Assembly (NCBI GenBank): GCA_963717145.1
Contig: OY970325.1
Span: 2,503,949-2,567,948 of the forward strand
Origin: an uncultured Armatimonadetes bacterium
GTDB lineage: Bacteria > Armatimonadota > UBA5829 > DTJY01
Reading direction: 5' to 3'
DNA length: 64,000 nt
Numbering within the stretch: position 1 is the first letter of the stretch; each line of letters begins with the position of its first letter. The translations under genes were made by a program, and so were the position numbers. The notes below the pieces were generated by a model. That model ran no database searches. It saw only the letters and a list, made by a program, of their open reading frames with translations, and was not told the DNA's origin. Shown here piece after piece: positions 21,089 to 23,823 of the stretch.

Positions 21089-22078
21089 CTAGAAGTAGTT
21101 GAGGTGCATGGCCTCGCGGACCTCGGACATCGTCTTCGCGCCTTCCTGACGGGCGCGCTCGGTGCCGGAGCGGAGGATATCCTCGACCAGATCGGGATTA
21201 TCTTCATACTTCGCACGACGCTCGCGCATCGGTTGGAGCAGCGTATTGAGCGCGGCAGAGAGGCGCTTCTTGCAGTCGACGCAGCCGATCTCCGCGGTTT
21301 CGCACGCCGGACGAAGCTCGGCGACGAAGTCGGGGTTGAAGACCTTGTGATACTCGAAGACGGTGCAGACATCCGGGTGACCGAGATCGGTCCGACGCTG
21401 CCTGGCCGGATCGGTGATCGCCATGCTGATCTTCTGAGCAACCTCCGCCTCGGAATCGCTGAGGTAAATGCAGTTGCCGATGCTCTTGCTCATCTTGGCA
21501 TTTCCGTCAGTCCCGACGAGCCGCCCAACCTCACCGACGAGGGCCTCGGGCTCGACGAGCACCGGCTTGTACAACTCGTTGAACCGCCGGGCGATCTTGC
21601 GCGCGAACTCGACGTGCGGGACCTGGTCCGCGCCCACCGGCACGAGGTTCGCCTTACAGAACGTGATATCCGCGGCCTGGCTCACTGGATAGCCGAGGAA
21701 TCCATAGGTCATGTCCTCGTAGCCATACTGCTTGGCCTCGGTCTTGATAGTGGGATTGTGGCGCAGGACGTTCACCGTGATGAACATCGAGTAGAAGATG
21801 GTCAGTTCGGCGATCTGGGGGACCATCGACTGGACGAAGATCGTGCACTTCTCCGGCTCCAGTCCGACGGCAAGGTAGTCCGTCGCCACCTGCCTGACAT
21901 CGTCCGGAAGCCGCTCGGGCGACTCGAAGTTGGTCGTCAGCGCCTGAACGTCCGCGATGATGATGAAAGTGTCGTACTCGTGCTGGAGCCTGACTCGATT
22001 GGCGAGCGAGCCCACGTAGTGCCCCAGATGCAGTTTGCCTGTCGGTCGGTCGCCGGTCAGGATTCTTCCTTTGGTCAT
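21089..22078 (-). CDS. trpS: Tryptophan--tRNA ligase
   Basis: Track ORF 21089..22168 trimmed to MTKGRILTGDRPTGKLHLGHYVG... (HIGH-type motif); KMSKS-like KMSKSIGN. Confidence 0.9.
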   Translation of the reverse strand: MTKGRILTGDRPTGKLHLGHYVGSLANRVRLQHEYDTFIIIADVQALTTNFESPERLPDDVRQVATDYLAVGLEPEKCTIFVQSMVPQIAELTIFYSMFITVNVLRHNPTIKTEAKQYGYEDMTYGFLGYPVSQAADITFCKANLVPVGADQVPHVEFARKIARRFNELYKPVLVEPEALVGEVGRLVGTDGNAKMSKSIGNCIYLSDSEAEVAQKISMAITDPARQRRTDLGHPDVCTVFEYHKVFNPDFVAELRPACETAEIGCVDCKKRLSAALNTLLQPMRERRAKYEDNPDLVEDILRSGTERARQEGAKTMSEVREAMHLNYF

Positions 22079-22320
22079 GGTGCAGACTGCCTCAGTGCCT
22101 GCCTGGGACTCATCCTGTTCTTCTTGGCAGACAGAATATGGCGCAATGCCCGAGGCTTCTCCACCCACAGCGCATACTCCTCATCAGAGAACCCAAGGAA
22201 CTCCGCCAGCGAGCGACCGTCATCCGACTTGTGCCACAACTCCACATATTGGTCTATATCTTTTGGATCTGCCTGTCCCTCGAAACACAGATCAACGAAA
22301 GTTTTTTCGTGCTCAGACAT
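22075..22320 (-). CDS. Small hypothetical protein (81 aa), candidate immunity/partner of upstream toxin
   Basis: Track ORF; overlaps the toxin gene by 8 bp and the trpS start by 4 bp; lower GC than flanks; no family recognised. Confidence 0.45.
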   Translation of the reverse strand: MSEHEKTFVDLCFEGQADPKDIDQYVELWHKSDDGRSLAEFLGFSDEEYALWVEKPRALRHILSAKKNRMSPRQALRQSAP

Positions 22321-22624
22321 TCAGCATCCGTCCTCTCACAGGCCCCTTGACAAGCTTACCAGTTACAGCGTCCAAGCTGCCCAGGTGAAACCCCCGCTTG
22401 TTGAACGCTTCAATCTCACCGTGAAGTGAGTCCCAGGTGTAGAGTCTCTCGCCATCGGGTGATCTCCATACCTTCCGACGATTTCGTACTGTGCTATCGA
22501 GGTTATCTAGGAAACCAGGACGTGGTCTCGTCTTGCCAGCCAACGCAGACTCCCCATGTGAGTATCGGTCGTGCTCTTCCATCATTATAACATGATGCAG
22601 CCTGAGAAGAAAAGACTGGCCCAT
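22313..22624 (-). CDS. Standalone colicin E3-like rRNase (cytotoxic) domain protein, 103 aa
   Basis: Track ORF; ...RRKVWRSPDGERLYTWDSLHGEIEAFNKRGFHLGSLDAVTGKLVKGP... parallels the colicin E3 C-terminal RNase (…KRKRWTGDKGRKIYEWDSQHGELEGY…HLGSFDPKTGNQLKGPDP…) as remembered. Confidence 0.7.
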   Translation of the reverse strand: MGQSFLLRLHHVIMMEEHDRYSHGESALAGKTRPRPGFLDNLDSTVRNRRKVWRSPDGERLYTWDSLHGEIEAFNKRGFHLGSLDAVTGKLVKGPVRGRMLNV

Positions 22625-22661
22625 GCAGGCGACGATGGCTAAGAGCCCATACCGATCAGTT

Positions 22662-22829
22662 CTAGTCTTGATCGCAGACAGCCAGGTAACCCCTCATGGC
22701 CTCTTGGATGTTGGTCAGCGCTTCTTCTCTCGTCTTGCCCTGAGAATGACACACGGGAAGGGCCGGAACGCTGGCAACGATCCAGCCGCTTTCCCCCTGC
22801 TCAAGGACAACGGCATATCTAGGTTTCAC
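22662..22829 (-). CDS. HicB-like (UPF0150) antitoxin-family small protein, 55 aa, GTG start
   Basis: Manual translation (not in track, <60 aa): VKPRYAVVLEQGESGWIVASVPALPVCHSQGKTREEALTNIQEAMRGYLAVCDQD; AGGAGG 8 nt upstream of GTG; matches the HicB N-terminal pattern (..Y.VVLE.dE.GgyvvsvPdLPGC.SQG.T.EEAL.N..EA...). Confidence 0.6.
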   Translation of the reverse strand: MKPRYAVVLEQGESGWIVASVPALPVCHSQGKTREEALTNIQEAMRGYLAVCDQD

Positions 22830-23823
22830 TCGCACTACCTCCTGATCCCGTAACTAGAGTAACGCACTGGGGGCGAAATGTCAACGCTCGACAGGTCGGT
22901 AGTCCTTCAACCTCGATCGGGATCTGCACGATATCCGACACGCCGGACTTGGTGAGGTGGCACGTCAGGATCGTGGTCTGCTTGCAGTTCTTGAACGGCG
23001 AGTCGAAGAGGAAGTTGCCGAGACTGTACGCGATCACCCCGCCGTGGTACTTCTCGACCTTCTGCAGGACGTGCGGATGGTGGCCGAGAATGAGGTCCGC
23101 GCCGGCGTCGATGATCTTGTGGGCAAGCTCGACCTGGGCGGGCTGCGAATGCATCCGGTACTCGATGCCCCAGTGGAGGCTGACGATCACGACATCCGCC
23201 TGCTCGGACGCCTGCCGGACCTCCGACTCGATCGTCTCGGTATCGAGGTAGGACGAGTTCGGCGCATCCGGGCGGAACCATGCGCCCTCCGGCAGCCACG
23301 CGTTCCGGGCAAGGAAGGCGATCCTGATCCCCTTCAAGGTCATGATGACCGGCAGAGCCGCGTCCGACGGAGTGTCCCCCGCGCCGATGTATGCGATCCC
23401 ACTCTTCGCGAGATAGTGCATCGTCTCGATGAGGCCCGGACGGCTGCAGTCCATGCTGTGGTTGTTCGCCAGCGATATCATGTCGAACCCCCCGTCGGTC
23501 AGGCATTCGACGTTCGCCGGATCTGCCTTGAAGCAGATCGGCTTCGTGACCTTGATGCCCCGAGCCGAGAGCGGGCACTCCAGGTTGCAGAAAGCAAGGT
23601 CAGCCCCCCGAGTCGTCTCCCGGACGCCCTTGAACGGCCACTCGATGCCGTACTTCCTGATCTGCTTGTCGATCCCGCGGTCGAGCATCACATCACCGAC
23701 CGCCATGAGCGTGATCGACGGCTCCGGCGCAGGCGGACGCACCTGGCGCTTCCTGCATCCACTCGGGCCTGTGAGTAGAATCGCGATGCCGAGCAGCCAG
23801 ACTGTCCGCCGGAATTCTAGCAA
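22819..23823 (-). CDS. CapA-family protein (poly-gamma-glutamate synthesis / metallophosphatase-like)
   Basis: Track ORF, 334 aa; N-terminal signal/lipoprotein-like segment, ...ITLMAVGDVMLDRGI... and ...GADLILGHHPHVLQ... motifs. Confidence 0.7.
   Translation of the reverse strand: MLEFRRTVWLLGIAILLTGPSGCRKRQVRPPAPEPSITLMAVGDVMLDRGIDKQIRKYGIEWPFKGVRETTRGADLAFCNLECPLSARGIKVTKPICFKADPANVECLTDGGFDMISLANNHSMDCSRPGLIETMHYLAKSGIAYIGAGDTPSDAALPVIMTLKGIRIAFLARNAWLPEGAWFRPDAPNSSYLDTETIESEVRQASEQADVVIVSLHWGIEYRMHSQPAQVELAHKIIDAGADLILGHHPHVLQKVEKYHGGVIAYSLGNFLFDSPFKNCKQTTILTCHLTKSGVSDIVQIPIEVEGLPTCRALTFRPQCVTLVTGSGGSASET

Follow-up and report, generated by a model that had tools for sequence, protein, structure and literature searches.

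In a 64,000-nucleotide stretch of DNA from an uncultured Armatimonadetes bacterium (GenBank assembly GCA_963717145.1, contig OY970325.1, positions 2,503,949 to 2,567,948 of the forward strand), three small open reading frames (ORFs) are packed on the minus strand between a capA-like gene and trpS, the gene for tryptophanyl-tRNA synthetase (TrpRS): a short HicB-like antitoxin gene, a gene for a relative of the ribosomal RNase (rRNase) domain of colicin E3, and a gene of 81 codons that overlaps the second. The full 64-kb stretch is referred to here as the window, and all coordinates are window positions. A first-pass annotation, made from the letters of the sequence, had listed the three ORFs where they are indeed found, and had cast the HicB-like protein as a partner of the E3-like RNase, with or without the third protein, in what might be a hybrid type II toxin–antitoxin (TA) module or an orphan toxin–immunity module. 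The locus raises the question of how a HicB-like gene came to stand beside an RNase of the colicin E3 type, and which of the neighbouring proteins would hold that RNase in check. The answer that we consider probable, including the working mechanism proposed below, is that the locus is a mosaic of two unrelated TA modules, in which a foreign E3-like cassette replaced hicA and clipped hicB.

The E3-type ribonuclease and its overlapping partner gene

The middle ORF, 103 codons long when read from ATG 22624, had been likened to the colicin E3 RNase domain, and the family assignment stands. The Pfam model Cytotoxic (PF09000) gives it a score of 50.2 bits (E 3.3e-13; cut-off 22), phmmer aligns residues 35–99 (103-aa numbering) with PDB chains of the colicin E3 RNase domain (2.9e-10), and the catalytic stretch W-D-S-x-H-G-E-x-E that had caught the eye is present and invariant among homologues. 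The start codon, and with it the distance from the HicB-like gene, needs revision. A database search returned 45 relatives, nearly all of them stand-alone proteins of 75–78 aa that several sources name 'colicin E3/pyocin S6 family cytotoxin', and the homologues align from residue 28 of the 103-aa ORF. This residue corresponds to TTG 22543, which is preceded at 6 nt by a Shine-Dalgarno-like GGGGAG (22550–22555) at a position that fits the homologue start; both TTG and GTG starts are frequent in the family at this position. Given where the homologues start and how long they are, the toxin gene most likely occupies 22313–22543 on the minus strand and encodes 76 aa, the 103-aa ORF being most likely an upstream extension of it. 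Measured from TTG 22543, the gap between the stop of the HicB-like gene and the toxin start is 118 bp, not the 37 bp first given.

Residues D65, H68, E72 and H80 of the longer ORF (D38, H41, E45 and H53 of the 76-aa protein) align with colicin E3, in which D55, H58 and E62 (domain numbering) are the catalytic residues and a second histidine is conserved (PMC3482391). All four are invariant both in 21 and in 37 homologues, and an arginine at the C-terminus, R72, is nearly so; together these five are predicted to be the catalytic residues. An AlphaFold2 model of the 76-aa protein (pLDDT 91.6) has six beta-strands, and when this predicted model was searched with Foldseek the only significant PDB matches were five colicin E3 RNase-domain entries (TMq 0.70–0.79). 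Profile, alignment and predicted structure agree in assigning the 76-aa protein to the colicin E3-type rRNase family, with a predicted all-beta E3 fold. It consists of the RNase domain only (76 aa, 103 at most), the translocation and receptor domains being absent, as had been observed from the outset, and compared with the E3 RNase domain it also lacks about 24 residues at the N-terminus.

Loci fetched for comparison are cited by L numbers. The closest relative of the toxin, at 70% identity, lies in L086 (34–3267, JGI 3300061690), followed at 69% by those of L087, L088 and L089, which belong to a three-gene form described below; restriction-modification genes adjoin the cassette in L087 and L088. 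Genes on Bacillus cereus-group plasmids and on one Klebsiella grimontii plasmid (H1–H15) match the C-terminal half of the toxin only; they are annotated as 'SAR2788 family putative toxin' or 'cytotoxin' and appear to represent a different, larger architecture with an E3-like domain. The RelS–RelI pair of M. tuberculosis, with a 77-aa toxin that cleaves 16S rRNA, was followed as a lead and set aside, its toxin having the RelE/BrnT fold and not that of E3.

The 81-aa ORF (22075–22320, minus strand) shares 8 bp (ATGTCTGA) with the end of the toxin gene, exactly as first described. Its product has no match in Pfam, NCBIfam, PADLOC or the PDB, and a word-indexed homologue search with it gave three matches; the family surfaced through gene neighbourhoods and a full HMMER scan, and it numbers at least 2,050 clusters. 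The family has neither a Pfam nor an NCBIfam model, no fold is recognisable in it, none of 36 members matches a helix-turn-helix (HTH) family, and the partner matches none of the immunity families Imm-Cloacin (Cloacin_immun), Imm45 and SUKH. The predicted model of the partner is all-helical. In the window both cassette ORFs are intact, and the partner keeps the conserved residues of its N-terminal domain.

The evidence that ties this gene to the toxin comes from a survey of gene neighbourhoods. A scan of one genome per species yielded 122 toxin relatives; 80 of their loci were retrieved, and in 79 of these a toxin ORF of about 77 aa could be recognised. A homologue of the partner lies directly downstream of the toxin gene on the same strand in every one of the 79, across many phyla. 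Its start is offset by −7, the 8-bp overlap seen in the window, in 42 loci and by −10 (11 bp) in another 17, which together make 59. Upstream of the toxin gene stand unrelated housekeeping genes (MutS, SHMT, GroEL, EF-G-like, ABC transporters), with flanks that are not conserved, and no Rhs, FHA, LXG, PAAR or other toxin-delivery domain is encoded among these upstream genes. The HicB family, by comparison, is nearly absent: a hidden Markov model (HMM) made from 87 relatives of the HicB-like protein found one HicB-family ORF in all the loci together (about 560 kb), at L018, leaving 78 of the 79 without one. The survey thus shows two small neighbouring genes, read in one direction and kept together in genomes that are otherwise unrelated, an arrangement typical of type II TA modules. 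The comparative sequence evidence identifies the downstream overlapping 81-aa gene, and not HicB, as the true partner of the toxin, and gives no support to the hybrid pairing put forward in the first-pass annotation.

Replacement of hicA upstream of trpS

If the partner of the RNase lies downstream, the HicB-like gene has to be accounted for in some other way. Its 55-codon ORF (22662–22829, minus strand) starts at GTG 22829 and stops at TAG 22664–22662, and its HicB character, which had been read from the N-terminus, is upheld by a Pfam profile search (HicB_lk_antitox, 28.1 bits, just over the cut-off of 27), by the 'HicB-like' family PHROG_497 (1e-11) and by TTHA1756 in the PDB (1.4e-5); its 87 HicB-like homologues carry PF15919. 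The protein is 87–91% identical to its closest relatives, which are 73 aa long, and ends 16 residues sooner; 82 of the 87 relatives continue for at least 8 residues past its end. On the evidence of these alignments the ORF is a 3′-truncated gene, here called hicB′, and not a full-length HicB. Within the coding part (22665–22829), the product has V in place of the G of a P-G-C motif kept by most relatives.

The contigs that carry the closest HicB relatives (L081, L082 and L084) tell where the missing end went. In L081, which was compared with the window by blastn and MAFFT, the gene order is DUF3160, capA, hicB (73 aa), hicA (73 aa, Pfam HicA_toxin) and trpS, and L082 likewise has hicB, hicA and trpS in that order. 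Nucleotide homology between the window and L081 covers DUF3160, capA and hicB as far as position 22665 and returns at 22079, 1 nt before the ATG of trpS. In hicB the homology ends with GAC, codon 55 from GTG 22829, and the triplet after it is TAG in the window where L081 has GGA, so that the stop codon of hicB′ was supplied by the incoming DNA. Between the two breakpoints, 585 bp of the window (22080–22664) stand in for 352 bp of L081 that comprise the 3′ end of hicB, hicA and a spacer. The segment has a GC content of about 52% against 60–65% in the flanks, bearing out an earlier remark that it looked AT-richer, and a tblastn search of the whole window for a HicA relative came back blank, in line with the first-pass annotation, which had noted the absence of a HicA-like gene. 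With homology broken off at hicB codon 55 and resumed 1 nt before the trpS ATG, it follows that this GC-poorer segment replaced the 3′ end of hicB together with hicA. To judge from these alignments, the adjacency of HicB and E3 is a recombination scar, and hicB′ is the leftover of an earlier hicBA module and no partner of the E3-like toxin.

L084 (1988–2206, Logan SRR30681598, compared with window 22560–22720) holds yet another allele, the third, in which a hicB′ of 59 aa is joined straight to the start of trpS and hicA is deleted. Since its breakpoints differ from those of the window, hicA has been lost at this site at least twice, independently of the cassette insertion. The deletion in L084 apparently ran across a short GGT(G) microhomology. 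Short repeats near the window junctions (for example GGCTGTCTGC and GGCAGTCTGC) are as frequent as chance predicts for 10-mers in 1.1 kb when one mismatch is allowed, and they do not lie at the breakpoints. As to where the segment came from, its non-coding part has no nucleotide-level relative in any fetched locus, and a nucleotide search of complete E. coli genomes found no copy of it.

Protease-linked relatives and a possible mechanism

In most of the surveyed loci the partner gene is followed by a third gene of about 325 codons, which matched Pfam Peptidase_M78 in 23 of the 35 loci sampled. The best PADLOC match of these M78 proteins is CapP (1e-22 to 1e-29), with weaker matches to RmrA (1e-9 to 1e-15), and among solved structures they come nearest in sequence to IrrE and CapP, over the peptidase core only (6e-5 to 2e-4). 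The HExxH motif is retained in 45 of 48; in L014, L040 and L058 (Acetobacteraceae / Rhodopila) the M78-like proteins are longer (411–421 aa) and have no HExxH, and L058 has additional partner-like copies upstream of its toxin gene. That the third gene in relatives might be trpS, as in the window, was considered and holds only for L001–L003; elsewhere in the sample it is usually the M78 gene. In the window itself an M78 peptidase gene is absent.

The presence of the peptidase gene goes with the form of the partner. Long partners (at least 95 aa, with a median of about 105) consist of a conserved N-terminal domain of about 65 aa and a variable linker ending in hydrophobic-A-A-R-[A/S], with a C-terminal helix that carries 'WLK' about 15 residues past the A-A-R motif; A-[AG]-R is found in 46 of 58 long partners. 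Short partners, of 73–93 aa, are without this AAR...WLK tail. Among the 68 loci with enough downstream sequence for a count, 51 have a long partner, with an adjacent M78 gene in 46 and none adjacent in 5, and 17 have a short partner, with an M78 gene adjacent in none. (The 46 comprise 43 within the offset window plus L011, L027 and L065, in which the M78 ORF overlaps or closely follows the partner at offsets of about −85, −130 and +155.) About two thirds of the loci carry the M78 gene, then, and they do so only beside a long partner. Short forms are interspersed among long-form relatives, the toxins of short-form L070 and L075 being 98.7% identical to that of three-gene L080, and some short forms group together in a separate clade. 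The form found in the window is the two-gene one, with a short partner that consists of the conserved N-terminal helical domain only.

The same module occurs in temperate phages, where its annotation has bearing on the HicB question. Gordonia phages Phabuloso, LitninMcQueen and Kamaru encode a full-length relative of the toxin, and in the lysogeny region of Phabuloso (ON526981.1; L091 2210–4035, genes 52–50) the order is immunity repressor, gp52, gp51, gp50, an HTH protein and integrase. The product of gene 52 is recorded as a 'HicA-like toxin' and matches Pfam Cytotoxic at 4.8e-13. That of gene 51 (284 aa), recorded as a 'HicB-like antitoxin', gives no sign of HicB in Pfam, PHROGs or the PDB; it contains the partner N-domain (hhalign 99.3%, E 9e-21), and its gene overlaps gene 52 by 8 bp. 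The third, gp50, recorded as a 'metalloprotease', is M78-like (21.1 bits) and belongs to PHROG_87 'metallo-protease'. By these domain matches the phage genes are the same toxin–partner–peptidase module, misannotated as HicA-like and HicB-like, and the phage 'Hic' labels therefore give no support for a link between HicB and E3.

The following sequence of events and activities would account for the locus. An ancestral arrangement of capA, hicB, hicA and trpS would have received the foreign 585-bp segment, which took the place of hicA in its entirety, of the spacer and of the 16 codons at the 3′ end of hicB. The cassette that it brought would be self-contained and bicistronic, with the 76-aa E3-type ribonuclease encoded first and the 81-aa helical protein translationally coupled to it. 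Colicin E3 cuts 16S rRNA between bases 1493 and 1494 (PMC3113570), and the 76-aa protein would likewise cut 16S rRNA in the decoding centre and so arrest translation, while the 81-aa protein would bind and neutralise it inside the producing cell. The partner would have to act on the toxin protein, since a cell with a constitutively active toxin would gain no protection from a repressor whose gene lies downstream of that of the toxin. In the three-gene form, the CapP/IrrE-like M78 peptidase may cleave the partner tail at or near A-A-R on a signal of stress or infection and thereby free the toxin. The signal for CapP and IrrE is single-stranded DNA (ssDNA). CapP is reported to cleave CapH at F82|R83 and to dock on its C-terminal helix (PMC13228613; 10.1101/2022.04.27.489752). 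The short form in the window would behave as a conventional two-gene module that depends on general proteolysis for activation, or on none.

The module in the window is probably, then, the reduced two-gene form of a probably protease-gated three-gene system, and can be classed as a type II-like TA module whose toxin is unusual and whose antitoxin is uncharacterised. A wider generalisation is possible, which we put forward tentatively and would not yet call likely: an undescribed and widespread class of ribosome-targeting TA systems, found in many bacterial phyla and in temperate Gordonia phages, might combine a stand-alone E3-type rRNase with a helical antitoxin of new fold and an M78 peptidase that cleaves the AAR...WLK tail on DNA damage or infection, as an abortive-infection or stress switch, with the window holding a protease-independent derivative that displaced the toxin of another TA module.

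Competing readings and known systems

Several observations weigh against the mosaic reading or the mechanism attached to it. Nucleotide searches yielded no donor for the segment. Constraint on hicB′ is not relaxed, with a ratio of nonsynonymous to synonymous substitution (dN/dS) of 0.06 against L081 and 0.09 against the independently truncated L084; the truncation may be recent, or the remnant may still be useful, for example against HicA toxins encoded elsewhere, and in itself the purifying selection gives no tie to the E3-like toxin. The one HicB-family ORF of the survey lies in a short-form locus, L018 (4402–4734, Planctomycetota metagenome-assembled genome (MAG)), as an orphan HicB-like gene (HMM 4e-8) just downstream of the partner and without HicA; it is compatible with chance, to which we attribute it, and a link is possible. 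The structural model of the partner was built on an alignment of three sequences. Finally, the window partner is without the C-terminal element found in about two thirds of its family and could be a damaged copy.

The last of these points is the core of the rival reading that survives best, although we consider it unlikely: that the window holds a decaying, non-functional fragment of the three-gene system, which lost its 3′ end on insertion and is now silent or inactive. Besides the missing tail and the missing M78 gene, it can draw on L086, where the partner N-domain (residues 1–68) is fused in frame to a methyltransferase-nuclease of more than 1,000 aa resembling MmeI/Eco57I, another truncating junction. 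Against decay, both ORFs are intact with all catalytic residues and conserved partner N-domain residues kept, the 8-bp coupling overlap is retained, and the same short form occurs in 17 of the 68 loci, in several phyla and partly as a clade, which argues that the short form is viable.

Very unlikely, in our judgement, is a reading in which the partner is a transcriptional repressor only, in the manner of CapH or DdrO, and the toxin is kept harmless through repression alone. It takes its appeal from the three-gene relatives, since peptidases of the CapP/IrrE kind normally cleave repressors (10.1101/2022.04.27.489752; PMC13228613). On DNA damage, the M78/COG2856 metallopeptidase of CapH–CapP, DdrO–IrrE and ImmR–ImmA cuts a small regulator close to the C-terminal helix of that regulator. 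The relatives are alike in that their M78 protein matches CapP best and that the long partner is laid out like CapH, with N-domain, linker and C-terminal helix; the linker has a conserved X-R site, in a motif that ends in arginine, and together with the helix it resembles the F82|R83 cleavage site and the docking helix of CapH (PMC13228613). The likeness stops at the N-domain, for which the 36 members examined gave no HTH match, and at the window, where there is no peptidase gene. Furthermore, capH and capP reportedly precede their defence operons and are transcribed divergently from them (10.1101/2022.04.27.489752), unlike the cassette genes, which follow the toxin gene in the same direction; a partner that is downstream of the toxin and coupled to it would never be made without it, and repression alone would presumably not protect the cell.

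Highly improbable is the orphan toxin–immunity module that the first-pass annotation had offered beside a TA module, that is, a remnant of an interbacterial weapon (bacteriocin, contact-dependent inhibition (CDI), Rhs or LXG) kept for immunity or as a recombination reservoir. Its starting point is the literature, where in searchable sources every occurrence of PF09000 is in a secreted weapon, namely colicins E3, E4 and E6, cloacin DF13, klebicin C, pyocin S6 and CdiA-CT effectors (PMC9990079; PMC3482391). The order of toxin then protector suits it too, as do the Bacillus plasmids that hold an E3-like domain within larger 'SAR2788 family' toxins. Colicin E3, cloacin DF13 and pyocin S6 with ImmE3 (Cloacin_immun) resemble the cassette in domain family, predicted fold, the D-x-x-H-x-x-x-E residues, the second histidine and the C-terminal arginine, and in having a small protector gene immediately downstream. 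They differ in that the cassette toxin has neither receptor-binding nor translocation domains, the protector is unrelated and predicted to be all-helical, and the cassette family is chromosomal, spread over many phyla and usually linked to an M78 gene. The polymorphic toxins with a Tox-ColE3 domain (CdiA-CT, MafB, LXG, Rhs; PMC3482391, PMC3113570) share the RNase domain and the order of toxin then protector, but the cassette toxin is stand-alone with its own start, no full-length toxin gene is nearby, and the partner belongs to none of Imm-Cloacin, Imm45 and SUKH, the families of reported immunity to E3-type domains (PMC3482391). A uniform family of about 77 aa with its own start codon and a conserved N-terminus, without signal or delivery domain, set among housekeeping upstream neighbours without Rhs, FHA, LXG or PAAR domains, and in most loci linked to the gene of a cytoplasmic M78 peptidase, is TA-like and fits an orphan immunity module poorly.

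Hardly credible, lastly, is a hybrid type II module in which the HicB-like protein, alone or with the 81-aa protein, is the functional antitoxin of the E3-like RNase: the genes are adjacent and co-directional with no hicA present, the constraint on hicB′, the orphan HicB-like gene beside the L018 cassette and the phage labels could all be enlisted for it, but the truncation of hicB′ coincides exactly with the recombination junction, full-length relatives of hicB′ are paired with hicA at this very site, 78 of the 79 homologous cassettes do without a HicB gene, the phage 'HicB-like' protein carries the partner N-domain and the 'HicA-like' one is Pfam Cytotoxic, and a single HicB match in about 560 kb would fall near a cassette by chance with a probability estimated at about 14%. 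What the locus shares with HicAB is its past, the resident genes having been hicB and hicA, and the HicB N-terminal domain signature that hicB′ keeps; it differs in that hicA is gone, hicB′ is truncated and the E3-like toxin is unrelated to HicA.

Under the mosaic of two TA modules, which we continue to prefer, the cassette can also be set beside toxin-first type II systems (higBA, hicAB, mqsRA) and TA or defence pairs that include a peptidase, such as RosmerTA, with which it shares two small, overlapping, co-directional genes, the toxin first, standing singly among housekeeping genes. The weak matches of the M78 proteins to PADLOC RmrA models concern RosmerTA. The cassette differs from all of these in its E3-type rRNase toxin and its uncharacterised antitoxin family. 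No PADLOC model matches the window toxin or partner, and no NCBIfam or PADLOC model covers the pair; the toxin of L060 has a weak match to PADLOC NsnC (1.2e-5). Nothing in the searchable literature was found to link PF09000 or colicin E3 to HicB, antitoxins, M78, COG2856 or CapP. The family to which the cassette belongs is large and undescribed, and a protease gene is usually part of it.

An E3 rRNase domain, known in the searchable literature only as a secreted weapon, is met here in a small intracellular module with a conserved protector of its own and, in most relatives, a dedicated protease of a stress-sensing kind. If the proposed mechanism is true, it would join the ssDNA-activated peptidases of the CapP/IrrE type with TA systems and abortive infection, with an effector that kills ribosomes. 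The site is also an unusually clean case of one TA module overwriting the toxin of another, with three alleles on record (hicBA intact, hicA deleted, hicA replaced), and the comparison exposes an error in phage records, which list the E3-like toxin as HicA-like and its partner as HicB-like. Family members are present in tractable hosts, among them the Bacillus subtilis group, Citrobacter freundii, Pseudomonas mangiferae and the Gordonia phages; those of C. freundii M-21 (L060), B. subtilis and phage Phabuloso are of the three-gene form.

The remaining features of the locus concern its expression and its resident flanks, all on the minus strand. The acquired segment holds a promoter-like region ahead of the toxin and partner genes, in which a putative extended −10-like element, TGtTATAAT (22584–22592), was read 41 nt upstream of the toxin start. 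Consensus scans returned no promoter or terminator, the promoter scanner being one that needs a −35 box, and Rfam has no match within the window. The capA-like gene (22819–23823), upstream of hicB′, is resident by synteny and by 78.6% nucleotide identity with the L081 gene (Pfam PGA_cap). At the other end, trpS (21089–22078) is the resident TrpRS gene; homology to relatives returns at ATG 22078, its true start, and its product is 79% identical in amino acid sequence to that of L082 (Pfam tRNA-synt_1b). The TGA stop of the partner gene and this ATG share the four letters ATGA (22075–22078), and the native region upstream of trpS, 75 bp in L081 and about 450 bp in L082, is gone from the window. 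With the partner stop overlapping the trpS start and the old upstream region lost, the essential trpS gene may now depend on read-through from the cassette or from capA–hicB′. In L001, L002 and L003, all from Verrucomicrobia MAGs, a TrpRS gene likewise follows the short partner gene, at a distance of about 15–90 nt, with products just 35% identical to the window TrpRS; the shared position of trpS behind the cassette could reflect two independent insertions upstream of trpS, or coincidence.

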